A program made the translations under genes and the position numbers. From Promethearchaeota archaeon (GTDB lineage: Archaea > Asgardarchaeota > Lokiarchaeia > Sigyniarchaeales > SOKP01): 47,969 bases of DNA. The notes beneath the pieces were generated by a model that was not told the DNA's origin, searched no databases, and saw only the letters and a list, made by a program, of their open reading frames with translations. Below are positions 2,207 to 9,223 of the stretch, one piece after another. Where the stretch lies: assembly GCA_011364925.1 (NCBI GenBank), contig RDOA01000026.1, positions 1-47,969 of the forward strand, written 5' to 3'. Numbering within the stretch: position 1 is the first letter of the stretch; the number at the start of each line of letters is the position of its first letter.

Positions 2207-3607
2207 CTAAAATCGCGTTTCATCCACTTCAGGCATATCAGATGCTGATAAGGCTTTTTGAATTTCTTCATTTGGCAACTCGTAATCTACTAAGTTACCA
2301 TCCATGTATTCTTTGTAGGCTAACAAATCGAAAAATCCGTGTCCGCTCAAACAGAATACAATATTTTTCTTTTCATTGTTTTCTTTAGCTAATAATGCTT
2401 GATCTATTGCTTCTTTTACTGCATGAGCCGTTTCAGGAGCAGGTATGATACCTTCTGTTTTTGCAAATATTAACCCTGATGAGATAACTTCAGTTTGATG
2501 ATGCATGATGGATGTCATTATTTTTTTATTAGATAAAATTGAAATTATTGGAGCCATTCCATGATAACGTAGTCCCCCAGCATGAATTGGACTTGGAATG
2601 AAATTATGACCAAGGGTGTGCATTTTTAAAATTGGAGCTTTTTTAGCTGAATCTCCGTAGTCCCATCTATAATTTCCTTTAGTAACGCTTGGACATGCTC
2701 TTGGTTCTACTCCTACGATTTCTAAATCTGGATTTACACCGTGCAGTTTATCTCGAGCGAAGGGAATCATAAATCCTCCTAAATTAGAACCGCCGCCCAT
2801 ACATCCGATTAATACATCGGGTTGAACTCCAATCTTATTTAGTTGAGCTTTAACTTCTTGTCCTATAATCGTTTGATGTAATAATACGAAATTAACAACG
2901 CTCCCTAAAGAATACCTTGCTGTATCACTTCTCAAGCTGTGTTCAACTGCTTCAGATATCGCTATTCCTAAACTTCCAGGATGGTTAGGATCACTTTCAT
3001 AATACGCTTTTCCCGAATCAGTGAGATTAGTGGGGCTCGCGTGAACTTGAGCGTTATATGCTTGCATTAATATTTTTCTTCCTGGTTTTTGAAGAAAACT
3101 AGCTCGCACCATATAGACCGTACAATTTATATCAAACATGCAGCATCCATATGATAAAGCAGAGCCCCACTGACCAGCACCAGTTTCAGTGATCAATTCA
3201 GTTACCCCATCTCTTTTAGAATAATAGGCTTGTGTCAAAGCTGTATTTGGTTTGTGCGAACCTGTTGGAGATACCGATTCATTTTTAAAGAAGATTTTAA
3301 TATCATCTCCAGATATTCCAAGTTCTTTCTCTAAGAAGTAAGCTCTGTGAAGCGGGGTTGGGCGATAAGTTTTCACAAAAATTTCCCGTAATTCATCAGG
3401 AATTGGAATTAAAGGTTCTTGAGAAACCTCTTGAAGTACACACTCTTTTGGAAATATAGCGAAAGCTAGTTCCGGAGGAGCTGGTTTTCCATCCATAGGA
3501 TTTATTAAGGGCGTCATAGGAGCAGGTAAATCAGGTACAATGTTAACCCATTCCTTTGGAATTTCGTTTGGTTCTAATAAAATTCTTGTTTTATTGAAGT
3601 CAATCAT
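2207..3607 (-). CDS. trpB2: Tryptophan synthase beta, type 2 (TrpB2), standalone
   Basis: PLP lysine motif GSHKPNTA, TETGAGQWGSAL, GGGSN, IHAGGLRYHG, PAPETAHA, SGHG. Confidence 0.95.
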   Translation of the reverse strand: MIDFNKTRILLEPNEIPKEWVNIVPDLPAPMTPLINPMDGKPAPPELAFAIFPKECVLQEVSQEPLIPIPDELREIFVKTYRPTPLHRAYFLEKELGISGDDIKIFFKNESVSPTGSHKPNTALTQAYYSKRDGVTELITETGAGQWGSALSYGCCMFDINCTVYMVRASFLQKPGRKILMQAYNAQVHASPTNLTDSGKAYYESDPNHPGSLGIAISEAVEHSLRSDTARYSLGSVVNFVLLHQTIIGQEVKAQLNKIGVQPDVLIGCMGGGSNLGGFMIPFARDKLHGVNPDLEIVGVEPRACPSVTKGNYRWDYGDSAKKAPILKMHTLGHNFIPSPIHAGGLRYHGMAPIISILSNKKIMTSIMHHQTEVISSGLIFAKTEGIIPAPETAHAVKEAIDQALLAKENNEKKNIVFCLSGHGFFDLLAYKEYMDGNLVDYELPNEEIQKALSASDMPEVDETRF

Positions 3608-3634
3608 TTTCTATTCCTTCTTTATATTAATGTT

Positions 3635-3778
3635 CATCTATTTTATAGATGTGTCATTTTAAGATTGGATTCCAATTATAATAATGCCCAATTGCAAACG
3701 CAATTGAAAATATGATGGTTTTTAATAAAAAGAGCTTAAAATTTGGTTTATCCTATGAAGAGCGTTTTTAGGAACGCC
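3635..3778 (-). promoter_or_regulatory. Structured trpB2 leader with several hairpins (putative attenuator)
   Basis: Inverted repeats GCGTT/AACGC (3762-3777), TCCTA/TAGGA (3751-3773), CAATTGC/GCAATTG (3689-3706), ATTGGA/TCCAAT (3664-3676), CATCTAT/ATAGATG (3635-3651). Confidence 0.55.
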
Positions 3779-3818
3779 AAGGCCACTGCCAACAGAAACA
3801 ATTATTTTCAGTAACCAT
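3768..3818 (-). CDS. Putative Trp-rich leader peptide MVTENNCFCWQWPWRS
   Basis: ATG at 3818 to TAA at 3768; three TGG among five consecutive codons; 160 nt upstream of trpB2 on the same strand. Confidence 0.7.
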   Translation of the reverse strand: MVTENNCFCWQWPWRS

Positions 3819-3898
3819 TGATTTAAACCAAGTTTTGATATAATGACATTTTATAATTAAAAACTTATAAAGTTAATCCTCTAGGATCTGATTATTAA

Positions 3899-4303
3899 TT
3901 ATTTTCGCTCAAATATACTGGCTAAATTTTTAGCAGCAACTCTCATAACTTTAACAGTCTTCATCAATGTATCAATAATAGTTCCTGCACATACAATTAC
4001 TAAACGTCCTGCGTTACTTACAATAATGTAACCATTCTCTGCTCTCACGATTATTTCGCTTAAATCTTCTTGAAATAGAGTTTTTATTGTAGAACTTCCT
4101 GTCATTAGAAGGGCGCTTGCGAGGCCGCAAAACTGATCTCCATCTACTTTATATTGAGGTAATGCTGAAAATGCGATCTGATAGCCTTCCAAACTTACAA
4201 GTGCTATGGCTTCAATATCCGCATTTGAAGTGATAAATGTAATTTGAGGACTAATTTTTTCAATTTCTTCGGGTCCAATTCCTAAATCTGTTCCGAATTC
4301 CAA
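3899..4303 (-). CDS. Roadblock/LC7 (MglB-like) domain protein
   Basis: IEAIALVSLEGYQIA, LSEIIVRAENGYIIV roadblock pattern. Confidence 0.9.
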   Translation of the reverse strand: MEFGTDLGIGPEEIEKISPQITFITSNADIEAIALVSLEGYQIAFSALPQYKVDGDQFCGLASALLMTGSSTIKTLFQEDLSEIIVRAENGYIIVSNAGRLVIVCAGTIIDTLMKTVKVMRVAAKNLASIFERK

Positions 4304-4523: not shown

Positions 4524-6830
4524 ATGATAACAACACGAGAGTCAATTAATTATCAATTTTCACTAATTTTTGGCTATTCTAGTCCTTCAGATTTAATAGT
4601 AGGTGATGTTGTAGGTCCAGGTAAGCTTACTAAAAAAAAAGTAAATGAGTTATCGCAAGAAGTAATTAAATATCTTAGGATGTACAACGCAATCTTAAGG
4701 GACTTCGCAGGGTCCGAAGTTTTCGCTATTGAATTTGAGTTATACAATTTTGATGAGAAAGATGCTATGACCAACATATATCCTAAATCCATGTTATTAG
4801 TCCCGGGAAGGTTTAAGGAATGTGAGAGTTTATTACTAGCGTTAAAGCCGGAGACAGGTTATCTTGATCCTCATAAATCTAGAGCTTCAGTAAATGAAAT
4901 TTGCAAACTGTTTTATGAGATAGAAGAGTTTACAACTCGCCCAGAATTAAACTCTGACAAGAAAGTTCAGGTTTTTGAGAAATTTGCTACGCGTTTTAGT
5001 AAAAAATTATACAGTGAGTTGATTGAGGACAAATGGAACAAGAAATTAATTGGCCTCAGTGTTTCTTTACCAACCGAAAAGGAATCGTTAACAACTTATG
5101 CATCAATTAGATCGGATGTTGATTTTCTATGGAATAAAAGGCCGATTGAAATTGTCTTTTCTAATCAAATATTTGAGCGATTGAAGTCGCCATATTCAGG
5201 AAAAGCTATGATTGATCATTTAAAATATGCGATTTCAGAGCCAAGTGCCAATTTTGTTGTTGAAAAAACCCTCACTTTAGGAACAAATCTTCTTAAATTA
5301 GCAAATACAGGGACAATTGACGAACTTCAAGTGGATATTATTTCCTATATCATCGCAAAAATAGAAGAACAATTAAGATTGATTAAGGATGTTTGCTCCG
5401 GTGAGGAGGTAATCTCAAAAATAATGCTTCTTTTGAATGATTTAGAAAATAATTTTAAGAGATTTTTGAGTGTTTCTAATAATTTTCTTACAACGGGTGA
5501 AATTGGTGATATTTCGGAGCTTCTAGCCAAATTCAATAGATATGTTATGGATATTGCCGGAGAAGATAAAGAAGTTTTTTTAAAGCTCAGCCAATTAGCA
5601 ATTAATTCAATTAGATTGTCAATTCATGGAGGGGAAACACTGAGATCTATTGAATTGACTTCCGTGATAAATTATTTTACTGAAATCGTTAGGAATAGTT
5701 TTATAATTATAAGGGAATCCTTCCCTCGGTATCTTTCAAATAGAAGATTAAAATCAATGGTTTATACATTTATAAGAAATTTGCAAAATAAGTTTGAAAA
5801 TGAACAAAAGCCCTCGAAGATATTGGGGAACAACTTGTTGAACAAGTTTGAACGGCATTTAAACTCCCAAATTGAAATAAATCCCATTATTCTGACGAAA
5901 ATGGGTAAGTATAACGAAGATGCGTTAAAAAGAGAGCTTAAAAAAATAATAAATGACAATGTTAAATCATTCTTCGGAGATATTAAGCTGAATATTAGTG
6001 ATTTGATAGCTTTTGCGGAAGTGCAAATGGAAAAAGACCCAAATATAATAAAATCTCATATAAAGAAATTTGAGGAATACTCCGGTGAATTAAAATACTT
6101 ATTGAGCTATATATTACGATTTTCTACTATTAACAGATTTTTAAAAGAAGAACCCGATATGGAAATAAAGGACCCCGTTACTTTTGCAAATAGATTTCAT
6201 CGGTTCTTAGAAAAGAGGTTAGGTGGAATTAATTTAACTTGGAAATCCTATATATTGGAGTGGATTAAAGATTACGCTAAAAATTTTTTCAATATAGAAG
6301 AAAAACGCGATTGGCAACTAGACGAGACATTTTTTGATTTCATTAAGTACCTTGAAGAACGTGAATCTATAGAACAGGAATCTGAAGCTTTCTCTGAATT
6401 TTTAGATAAATACATTCAAACTGTTGCTGAAAAAAACGAGAGAGAAAATTTAATAGATTTTTATAAACATTATGAATATTGTATAGGCATAAAAACAGAA
6501 TTTCCGAAATATGTTAAAAGTAAAGTAGAAACAGAAATTAGCTTATTTATTCCGGAGCAAGAAAACAAAACCCCGATAGATTATCTAATTAGTAGTGAGG
6601 GAGACACGTTCAAGGATTTTATTACAGAGAAGGAATTAAAATATTTTTCGAAGTTGATAGCAAGACCTGCCTCTTTGATTTTAAAACAGGATTTAACACC
6701 CGAAGAAGAGGAATTGTTTACTGCTAATCTATTCCAAGTTTTTGAATTCAAATATTGGCACAAAAATACCAAATATAATGTATCAGATAATTTTACGGAA
6801 GTATATAGAGAATGGCTAAAAAATTTGTGA
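4524..6830 (+). CDS. Large hypothetical protein, possible N-terminal longin-like domain plus helical body
   Basis: 768-aa ORF; no catalytic motif recognised. Confidence 0.6.
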   Translation: MITTRESINYQFSLIFGYSSPSDLIVGDVVGPGKLTKKKVNELSQEVIKYLRMYNAILRDFAGSEVFAIEFELYNFDEKDAMTNIYPKSMLLVPGRFKECESLLLALKPETGYLDPHKSRASVNEICKLFYEIEEFTTRPELNSDKKVQVFEKFATRFSKKLYSELIEDKWNKKLIGLSVSLPTEKESLTTYASIRSDVDFLWNKRPIEIVFSNQIFERLKSPYSGKAMIDHLKYAISEPSANFVVEKTLTLGTNLLKLANTGTIDELQVDIISYIIAKIEEQLRLIKDVCSGEEVISKIMLLLNDLENNFKRFLSVSNNFLTTGEIGDISELLAKFNRYVMDIAGEDKEVFLKLSQLAINSIRLSIHGGETLRSIELTSVINYFTEIVRNSFIIIRESFPRYLSNRRLKSMVYTFIRNLQNKFENEQKPSKILGNNLLNKFERHLNSQIEINPIILTKMGKYNEDALKRELKKIINDNVKSFFGDIKLNISDLIAFAEVQMEKDPNIIKSHIKKFEEYSGELKYLLSYILRFSTINRFLKEEPDMEIKDPVTFANRFHRFLEKRLGGINLTWKSYILEWIKDYAKNFFNIEEKRDWQLDETFFDFIKYLEERESIEQESEAFSEFLDKYIQTVAEKNERENLIDFYKHYEYCIGIKTEFPKYVKSKVETEISLFIPEQENKTPIDYLISSEGDTFKDFITEKELKYFSKLIARPASLILKQDLTPEEEELFTANLFQVFEFKYWHKNTKYNVSDNFTEVYREWLKNL

Positions 6831-9223
6831 TAAGAGGGATACAGAGAAAATCAACTGCTGTAGAAAGTACTTTTAGGTTCTTTCAAACTATTGATTTGAT
6901 CATATCTCATCTAAAAAGAAAAGGTGATAAAGAAATGATTTTTGAATTGATTCGTAATAATCCTAATCTACGATCGCTTTTAATTGCAACAGCAGCTGTT
7001 CACTTATATCATTACATGGGAATAAAGGTTCAAGAAACTTTGGATTCAAATAAATTTACTGATGACTCTACTCAACTTTTGGAGTTCAAAGAGAAGCAAA
7101 TATTAATGGAAGAAGTTGCCACTCTCCTAAAAAACTCGTTTGAATTAGAAAGAGGTATTTTCGATGAAATAATCGATCTTGAAAATTTATTTTTAACGCT
7201 TTTAATGGAAGAAAGGCTTGGAGATCTTCAAGAAGCTGAAAAGGTAAAAAAAGTCGGAGATATTGAAGATCAGATTGAATTTGGATTGTTAAATATCATC
7301 TCAAATTTTCCATCCTTTTACTTTTATGACTTTATTGGCGATCTAATCGGTTTGAATGATGAGATAAGAAAAGACATATTGGTAGAGGGTGCTGCATTAA
7401 AAAGTGTATCTGTAGAAATAGATAAAAAATTAGAACTTGAAGAGAAGGAAGATAAGTTTATTGAGGTTTTTACGCTAAATCGGGTGATCCAGGCAATGCA
7501 AAATCAGTTTGAATTTAAATCATACAAAGAATTGCAAGTTCAGACTATGTCAATAAGGATGATAAAAAAGAAAATTTTAGAGTACGAACTTAACAAATTC
7601 CCTATTTCTGTCTCTGGATTAAATAGATATATTGAAGGAAATAATTTAAAACGCGAAATTATTAAATATATTAGTAATGCTTTAGAGGAAAATCTTGATT
7701 TTGAAAAATTTGAAGAAAGGATTCTTTCAGATTTAAAGCAAGAAATTTCCAAGCAATTAAAGACAAATCCAAATGATCTTATTTATTTTCTTCAGAGTGT
7801 TTATGAATCGAGTTTTGAAGATGTAATTTTTTTGCTTAACAAGAGAGGAATTAAAGACACATTACATTTAATCAATATCGATTATGAGTTAGCAGAAAAT
7901 GTAAAAAAAACCATGATTAAATACAACATCAATAAACAAGACTTAATCTCGTTAAATGATAATAACAAAAATTTAATTAATCAAGCAAAAAAAGCTTTGT
8001 GTCATCTGAAATTTTCTTATCTTGATAAATTCGCGACAAAATCAGGAGATAACAGTGAATTTGATCTATTCAAAATTCTCTCTAGAAATGATAGTGAATT
8101 TAGTGAATTATGGGATATTCTAGAAAAGAAAACTGGATTTAAAATAAATAATTTGAGGGAATTCGTAAGTAAAAAGCAAAATATAGATAAAATATTTTTT
8201 CAAGAATTAAAATTAAGCAATTATTCTCAAATTCTACTTCTTATTGATTACGAAGAAATCTTTACTAACTTAGTAACTGATTTATTTTATAGCGTATTAG
8301 CCAAAGTCCTTAGACAATTAAGTAGAATCATTGAATTGTATGGTATAATTTCAAACGATAAAGCAATATTTTCAACCGCTTTAAAGAGAGCAGTTCCGTC
8401 GACAGAGATAGAAGATTGGAGTCAAATTAAGCTTGAAGAATTAAGTATTAAGCGTTTAATGAAAAGACAGAATGAATTAGTGGTTGTGTTTAATGCGATC
8501 AATCAGGTATTTTTAGTAAATGGGTTCATTTTATCACGTCTAACAAACAAATCTCTACAGGAAGGCGTTTTTGAATTAAAAAATAAGGAGAGTTATGTGT
8601 ATGAAGGTATTATTCCATTAAAGTTAAAAGCGGATTTAGTTTCACCGGTATCATACTGTATAGCTTATGATTTAATAAAACGATTTGAAGAGGTTGAAGA
8701 ATCTGAAAAAGACAAGGTTATTAGCACTGAAGCAGAAAAACAGAAAAAAGAGGATGACAAAAAGAAAGAATATCACAAAATACAACAGGAGAATCCATTT
8801 AATTGGATCGATCGTAAAATTACTTCTGCAATGATGGGAATTAATCGCCCGGGAATGAACCCTAGTCAATTCTATTGGGAGTCAAAAGATACGAAAATTG
8901 CAACAGAGCAAATAAAAATTCATAGTAGCCTTAAAGATAATCCTTTTGCTAGTTTTTGTGAATTCTATAATTTTGCAGTAGAGAAAATTAAATCGCACAT
9001 TGAAGGTATTGATTTACCCACTCAAGAAGAAATTGAGAAAGATGTTTCTAATTTTATAATTGAAGCTATGTCTGAAGGATTAGACCATCCGCAAAATCTT
9101 AAAGAAATCAAAGAATTGCTTGAAGGTGAAAGATACGATGTAGCAAACAAAATTGCGGAGAAAATCGGAACACTACTTAATAAAGCGCTTTATTTAAAAT
9201 TCAAACAAAAAAGGAAGAAATAA
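6812..9223 (+). CDS. Large alpha-helical hypothetical protein
   Basis: 803-aa ORF overlapping the upstream gene by 19 nt; charged coiled-coil-like stretch near the C-terminus. Confidence 0.6.
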   Translation: MAKKFVIRGIQRKSTAVESTFRFFQTIDLIISHLKRKGDKEMIFELIRNNPNLRSLLIATAAVHLYHYMGIKVQETLDSNKFTDDSTQLLEFKEKQILMEEVATLLKNSFELERGIFDEIIDLENLFLTLLMEERLGDLQEAEKVKKVGDIEDQIEFGLLNIISNFPSFYFYDFIGDLIGLNDEIRKDILVEGAALKSVSVEIDKKLELEEKEDKFIEVFTLNRVIQAMQNQFEFKSYKELQVQTMSIRMIKKKILEYELNKFPISVSGLNRYIEGNNLKREIIKYISNALEENLDFEKFEERILSDLKQEISKQLKTNPNDLIYFLQSVYESSFEDVIFLLNKRGIKDTLHLINIDYELAENVKKTMIKYNINKQDLISLNDNNKNLINQAKKALCHLKFSYLDKFATKSGDNSEFDLFKILSRNDSEFSELWDILEKKTGFKINNLREFVSKKQNIDKIFFQELKLSNYSQILLLIDYEEIFTNLVTDLFYSVLAKVLRQLSRIIELYGIISNDKAIFSTALKRAVPSTEIEDWSQIKLEELSIKRLMKRQNELVVVFNAINQVFLVNGFILSRLTNKSLQEGVFELKNKESYVYEGIIPLKLKADLVSPVSYCIAYDLIKRFEEVEESEKDKVISTEAEKQKKEDDKKKEYHKIQQENPFNWIDRKITSAMMGINRPGMNPSQFYWESKDTKIATEQIKIHSSLKDNPFASFCEFYNFAVEKIKSHIEGIDLPTQEEIEKDVSNFIIEAMSEGLDHPQNLKEIKELLEGERYDVANKIAEKIGTLLNKALYLKFKQKRKK

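Follow-up and report, generated by a model that had tools for sequence, protein, structure and literature searches.

The window (the whole stretch of DNA that was analysed, 47,969 nucleotides long) carries on its minus strand trpB2, the gene of a stand-alone beta-type tryptophan synthase, and before it a short upstream open reading frame (uORF) rich in Trp codons. Further upstream lies a Roadblock/LC7 gene with a TTG start (3899-4303, minus strand), and divergent from it an overlapping pair of ORFs of 768 and 803 aa (4524-9223, plus strand). The features of the region, with the kind of evidence for each in brackets, are the following.

3864-3871, minus: TATA box TTTATAAG (sequence and conservation in relatives)
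3824-3831, minus: P1 5' arm, lying before the uORF (folds, pairing signal)
3768-3818, minus: leader ORF, 16 codons and TAA (translation, conservation)
3809-3816, minus: P2 5' arm, from the G of AUG to codon 4, pairing with 3788-3781 (folds, covariation)
3781-3788, minus: P2 3' arm, Gln-Trp-Pro codons (folds, covariation)
3777-3791, minus: three Trp codons with W-x-W-x-W spacing, putative sensor (translation, conservation, pattern scan)
3762-3777, minus: P3 hairpin, last Trp and Arg codons with post-stop bases, stop codon in the loop (folds, covariation)
3743-3750, minus: P1 3' arm, closing the three-way junction (folds, pairing signal)
3707-3741, minus: U-rich spacer with U4 tracts at 3741-3738, 3731-3727 and 3710-3707, candidate termination zone (sequence, composition)
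3647-3693, minus: H-B, conserved irregular downstream hairpin (covariation, folds)
3615-3620, minus: Shine-Dalgarno-like (SD) GAAGGA of trpB2 (sequence only)
2207-3607, minus: trpB2, 466 aa, the putatively controlled gene (TIGR01415, only trpB)

The product of trpB2 scored 581 bits with TIGR01415, over the cut-off of 518.85, and the trpB1 model TIGR00263 stayed far under its own cut-off. It is the sole trpB found in the genome. Members of the trpA, trpC and trpE families were not detected in this genome, which is 100% complete; therefore, considering the known TrpB reaction, trpB2 probably serves indole salvage. Two large beta-eliminating lyases (PF01212) are encoded on plus strands of the source genome (G000:C27:28079-29453 and C38:92691-94317), and one of them could be an indole source if it is a tryptophanase or a tyrosine phenol-lyase; no Trp-cluster leader was found upstream of these two genes. 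At two of the compared trpB2 loci (L018, L023) the usual start position is occupied by ATA, behind a strong AGGTGAT, which suggests AUA initiation, and at a third (L005, G016:C53:60246-61643) the gene contains one in-frame TGA and the leader is intact.

In the translation of the window, the minus-strand ORF at 3818-3768 encodes MVTENNCFCWQWPWRS*, with Trp at codons 10, 12 and 14 of 16, then R, S and TAA. Its stop is separated by 160 nt from the ATG of trpB2 (3607). Among the 2698 intergenic ATG-started small ORFs of the genome it is the top Trp cluster, and the pattern TGG-N3-TGG-N3-TGG has 2 sites in 0.53 Mb of non-ORF DNA, this leader and one contig edge; the leader covariance model gave a single match in the source genome. 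An earlier note on this DNA had described a Trp-rich ORF at this place and distance from trpB2, and both the translation and the genome-wide ranking bear it out. It had also pointed to two TATA-like elements. The one at 3871-3864 would place the start of transcription at about 3842-3840, some 23 nt ahead of the AUG. It is kept in relatives (in 72 loci of the source genome's family the word TTTWTAW is mostly found 50-65 nt ahead of the uORF), whereas the second word, at 3856-3849, is not conserved in them.

We compared 125 distinct trpB2 upstream regions, nearly all from Promethearchaeia, to which the relatives of the source genome belong, and one from Odinarchaeia. The earlier note had counted a lack of Trp-rich uORFs at orthologous loci as a refutation, but such uORFs do recur there, with the frame kept: a uORF with W-x-W(-x-W) clustered at or near its end was present in 111 of the 125, the compared genomes being kin and the loci not independent trials; 13 loci were without it and 1 was masked. 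An open in-frame ATG was located 5-35 codons before the Trp cluster in 100 of the 114 scored leaders, the other two frames giving 1 and 3, and most of the non-ATG uORFs begin with GTG or TTG. Within the source genome's family, where all three stop codons occur, the in-frame distance from the start to the last Trp is 36, 39, 42 or 45 nt, that is, it changes by steps of 3 nt. These starts and steps argue that selection acts on the reading frame and not merely on the TGG repeat. The peptide, 12-59 aa long, is freely variable in its N-terminal sequence and commonly ends in W-R/Q-W-P-W-R, the residues between the Trp varying among Q, P, R, C, H, A and S, and the spacer between uORF and trpB2 ranges from 65 to 456 nt. 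The leader is kept even where the trpB2 proteins are only about 52-58% identical to that of the source genome. Both cultured organisms, MK-D1 and Loki-B35, carry it; MK-D1 is unable to make Trp (PMC11316595).

In other Asgard families, clear Trp-rich leaders were seen in about 9 of 40 loci, Odinarchaeia-like genomes included, and the distribution outside Promethearchaeia appears patchy. All told, over 100 genomes of Asgard archaea have the leader ahead of genes for making Trp. The earlier note had spoken of the lineage closest to eukaryotes, which is overstated: the genome belongs to Promethearchaeia (Loki), and PMC12222021 presents the placement of eukaryotes as debated around Heimdallarchaeia. 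Different types of Trp-rich uORF precede trpB2 at L363, L364 (G214, G265), L382, L383, L384 and L390, all from other Asgard families, and one of these types ends in a conserved W-x-W-G-P-R-G-P-V. Three loci within one genus, L229, L230 and L235 (G090, G088, G084), are natural uORF deletions in which the H-B hairpin is retained; the W clusters called there were discounted, their positions falling inside the Roadblock gene. A Trp-containing "peptide" before a Thermoplasmata trpB2 proved to be the C-terminus of the upstream gene. Trp-rich leader peptides were also seen before trpB2 of bacteria or unassigned metagenomes (L087, L088, L117, L136, L142, L181, L208, L226); these are presumably ordinary bacterial attenuators, and they bear on a possible import of the archaeal leader.

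The same leader heads 21 trpD-first operons unlinked to trpB2, 7 of them found via trpB1 and 14 more via the leader covariance model; behind the leaders found with the model, trpD was confirmed and trpC/trpF were matched. Six genomes with a leaderless trpB2 have the leader at a trpD-first operon instead, and Loki-B35 has two paralogous leaders, one for trpB2 and one for the trp operon. Taken together, the comparisons indicate that the leader is real, conserved and linked to trp function. A weak match to the leader model (L304, E 0.005) was treated as chance. In another genome (L303:432-528, plus strand, G117:C96) there is a second leader copy in decay, where TAG replaces a Trp codon in frame; the genes that normally come after trpB2 follow it, and trpB2 itself is absent. 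Directly behind the Trp leader of several loci (L302:2894-3145, minus strand; also L288, L297, L300 and L301) we observed an unnamed ORF of 70-95 aa, which stands ahead of trpD in several genomes, is present in 9 of 151 genomes and has no Pfam family. It was also possible to see a Phe-rich variant of the leader (L301:3265-3367, minus strand, G066:C17), whose last eight codons include five Phe and two Trp; it precedes the unnamed small ORF, a CxxCxxCC protein and a beta-keto acid cleavage enzyme, and not trp genes.

The helices were compared in 72 non-redundant leaders of the source genome's family. Folds and covariation support a three-way RNA junction (P1-P2-P3) whose strands take in the AUG and the Trp codons and hide them. 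P1 joins bases before the AUG with bases about 20 nt past the stop and gave the strongest cognate-versus-noncognate signal (t about -6); a second ATG, out of frame and about 55 nt upstream, is part of its arm. In P2, 71.5% of the cells were paired, with double changes at 4 pairs, and in P3 88.5%, with double changes at 3 pairs. For both together the figures were 78.7% paired, against 26-53% in slid controls, and 22 double changes where shuffles gave 6.7, the shuffles being a control that takes no account of relatedness, so that the result is to be read as support and not as a probability. Run over the full leader, RNAalifold returned P3 alone. The Gln codon is CAG in 70 of 74 leader cases, compared with a genome usage of 21%, and this bias is explained by the P2/P3 pairing. 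Of 95 leaders, all except two have a stem whose start is no further than about 9 nt from the last Trp codon; in other Asgard families the structural details differ and the stem start is again within about 9 nt.

The family tract located 20-80 nt past the stop has at least 9 T in 12 nt in 82% of leaders, compared with 46% of convergent ends and 24% of upstream controls; it holds a mean of 2.65 U4 tracts and is richer in U than the real 3' ends of the source genome. In the source genome itself the tract is no more than average (T 0.42), and the predicted folds pair it with the A-rich stretch ahead of the SD whatever the ribosome state; outside the family the tract is not clearly U-rich. Downstream of it, H-B was 81% paired, with 80 double changes against 34, and it accompanies the leader to the trp operons and persists where the uORF was deleted. 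With a ribosome footprint set on the first or the last Trp codon or on the stop codon, the predicted folds lost P2 and then P3, and everything downstream, H-B included, was unchanged. Neither a mutually exclusive terminator/antiterminator pair nor a covariation-supported alternative helix was found in the folds and cognate pairing tests, and the sole match of the terminator scan (3708-3687) is conserved only in close relatives. Two roles for H-B were discarded: its CCAAU could pair with UUGG words located behind P3 or within the Trp codons, but the cognate advantage was small or absent (t +0.9 to -1.5), and the stem register does not fit a mimic of an anticodon loop.

Taking into account this anatomy and the established knowledge of leader peptides, it is very probable that the leader senses Trp-tRNA through the ribosome. 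As to the output, we lean, with reserve, to premature transcription termination, the leader being a gauge of charged tRNA-Trp that would permit trpB2 expression only at low Trp. The transcript would begin about 23 nt ahead of the AUG, and a ribosome would load on it while it is still nascent. With ample Trp it would complete the uORF and depart, the junction would refold and hide the AUG from reloading, and the 160 nt of untranslated RNA with its U4 tracts would lead to oligo-U or aCPSF1-dependent termination. With scarce Trp the ribosome would dwell on the Trp codons, P2 and P3 would be blocked, and the polymerase would read through. The aCPSF1/FttA gene is present in the source genome; two U4 tracts are enough for binding of aCPSF1, a U-tract-specific nuclease, and the Loki enzyme is active (PMC8716108). 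Direct evidence of coupling between transcription and translation in archaea has been called scarce (PMC13681488). The weak step is the link from sensor to termination, as a ribosome on the Trp codons does not physically reach a U tract 40-70 nt away. A wider and more tentative proposal, which we consider possible rather than probable, is that Asgard archaea use cognate-codon leaders genome-wide, in which dwelling on a self-hiding junction would gate aCPSF1/FttA termination without an antiterminator.

The same sensor could act instead on the initiation of trpB2 translation, the stalled ribosome altering the exposure of the ribosome-binding site. It is consistent with this that the source genome's U tract is able to pair with the A-rich stretch that overlaps the SD, that the P3 region and the SD region show a weak cognate signal (t -3.6), and that the strongly conserved H-B sits 40-60 nt upstream of the start codon; the mycobacterial polycysteine sORFs are a precedent (10.1101/834739). 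Nevertheless, the SD pairing is the same at all ribosome positions, with a family mean probability of only about 0.13, the spacer is very variable in length, and the leader is also found at the head of 7-gene operons, for which controlling just the first gene is less economical, so we regard this output as unlikely. Rather improbable, in turn, is an output through mRNA stability, in which, once the ribosome has left, the naked U-rich spacer of the finished transcript would be cut by a nuclease of the aCPSF1 or RNase J type and H-B would mark or protect the processed end. The specificity of aCPSF1 for U tracts fits it, as does the survival of H-B in the three uORF-deleted loci, which suggests a role of its own for this hairpin. 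Nothing points positively to a post-transcriptional step, however, and in its signs this output is close to termination.

Other explanations dispense with Trp-tRNA sensing. The recurrent C-terminus would agree with a peptide active by itself, whether as a TnaC-like sensor of free Trp, as a trans-acting Trp/Arg-rich peptide or as the precursor of a modified one, but the length and N-terminal sequence vary freely and the neighbours are the Roadblock gene and trpB2, with no modifying enzyme. TnaC turns a catabolic gene on when Trp is present, a logic opposite to the biosynthetic need. We hold an active peptide to be very improbable, and still less credit is due to the idea that the TGG repeats are the site of an RNA- or DNA-binding protein activated by Trp and resembling TRAP or TrpY, the ORF being incidental. 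The codons of the spacer residues are indeed constrained as nucleotides, as the CAG preference indicates, but the P2/P3 pairing accounts for it; moreover, frame, start and stop are kept through indels and the spacer residues vary, and the His and Leu leaders of the same genome use other codons. The mtrB/TRAP gene (PF02081) was not found in the genome by a search that matched the Bacillus control. The TRP box of TrpY has the consensus TGTACA, and none was present in 3607-3899, the nearest being inside the divergent gene. That the ORF arose by chance in a G+C-rich patch and was kept by descent alone has a negligible probability. Many of the compared genomes are close kin, which would favour it, but the leader is kept at 52-58% TrpB2 identity, at two trp loci that are not linked and in a number of other Asgard families; the top small-ORF Trp cluster, the rare TGG pattern, the conservation of the frame and the copies at trpD operons refute it.

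By comparison with enterobacterial trpL (Rfam Trp_leader), the leader shares a short uORF with Trp codons clustered towards its end and a trp gene about 160 nt further on, regulatory codons within strands of covarying hairpins (P2 and P3 here) and a start codon that downstream RNA can hide. Unlike trpL, it has an archaeal promoter and polymerase, alternating W-x-W in place of tandem WW, and neither an antiterminator/terminator pair nor, as intrinsic terminator, a conserved G+C-rich hairpin with a U run; a U-rich tract follows P1 instead. The Rfam search of the leader gave no Trp_leader or T-box match, its three matches (E 3-9) being unrelated and far under the gathering scores. The outcomes of the terminator and Rfam tests point to a leader that works like trpL and is not a member of the trpL family. 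Thus, of the Trp-sensing leader attenuator that the earlier note proposed, the frame-kept uORF before trpB2 and the trp operon stands, whereas the architecture is not the 1:2, 2:3 and 3:4 pairing of E. coli.

TrpY has a single Trp, at codon 2, which Xie and Reeve are said to have proposed in 2005 as a possible sensor of charged tRNA. TrpY of Methanothermobacter and Tar/TK0271 of Thermococcus also make trp control responsive to Trp or aromatic amino acids, but as DNA-binding proteins at initiation, with no separate leader ORF or RNA structure, and described archaeal trp control consists of DNA-binding proteins only (PMC6737238). A literature search with most subscription journals outside its coverage found no published archaeal leader-peptide attenuator. 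In bacteria, an attenuator has been predicted before trpB2A of Corynebacterium diphtheriae (PMC1262725). The mycobacterial polycysteine sORFs (10.1101/834739) and the actinobacterial cys/leu leaders without terminators (PMC1262725) are similar in having a cognate-codon sORF and no classical hairpins, in that a stalled ribosome is thought to block structure, and in that several loci per genome form a ribosome-directed regulon; they differ in being leaderless and in acting on a duplex that sequesters the ribosome-binding site, no such switchable duplex having been found here. E. coli tnaC, where ribosome stalling opposes Rho-dependent termination, is alike in its uORF followed by a long pyrimidine-rich untranslated spacer, and FttA/aCPSF1 has been described as mechanistically analogous to Rho (PMC13681488). 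In tnaC, however, a conserved nascent peptide senses free Trp and induces a catabolic operon, whereas a conserved peptide with TnaC-type spacing before a catabolic gene was not found at the Asgard loci, where a variable peptide precedes biosynthetic genes.

The leader bears on the status of amino-acid-sensing uORFs in archaeal relatives of eukaryotes. As a 210-nt cassette that should react to a single amino acid, and that both of the cultured Loki archaea carry, it would be a ready coupling reporter. If the reading gated by aCPSF1/FttA is true, the attenuation design would be built on the archaeal homologue of the eukaryotic 3'-end nuclease CPSF73, and it would be direct proof of regulatory transcription-translation coupling in archaea.

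Cognate-codon leaders for two other amino acids were seen in the source genome, and they support the Trp leader as a probable attenuator. A 49-codon uORF whose terminal run has six His codons (L317:2505-2651, minus strand, G000:C39:40631-40777) lies 86 nt upstream of the first gene of the his operon, which contains HisIE, and similar His-rich uORFs occur in three relatives (G015, G008, G023). A 31-codon Leu-rich uORF (L315:295-390, plus strand, G000:C56) lies 120 nt before leuS, the gene of leucine--tRNA ligase, at 2410, and every one of the 18 genus loci that include upstream DNA has kept it. At several leuS loci a second short conserved segment is located between the Leu-rich uORF and the gene.
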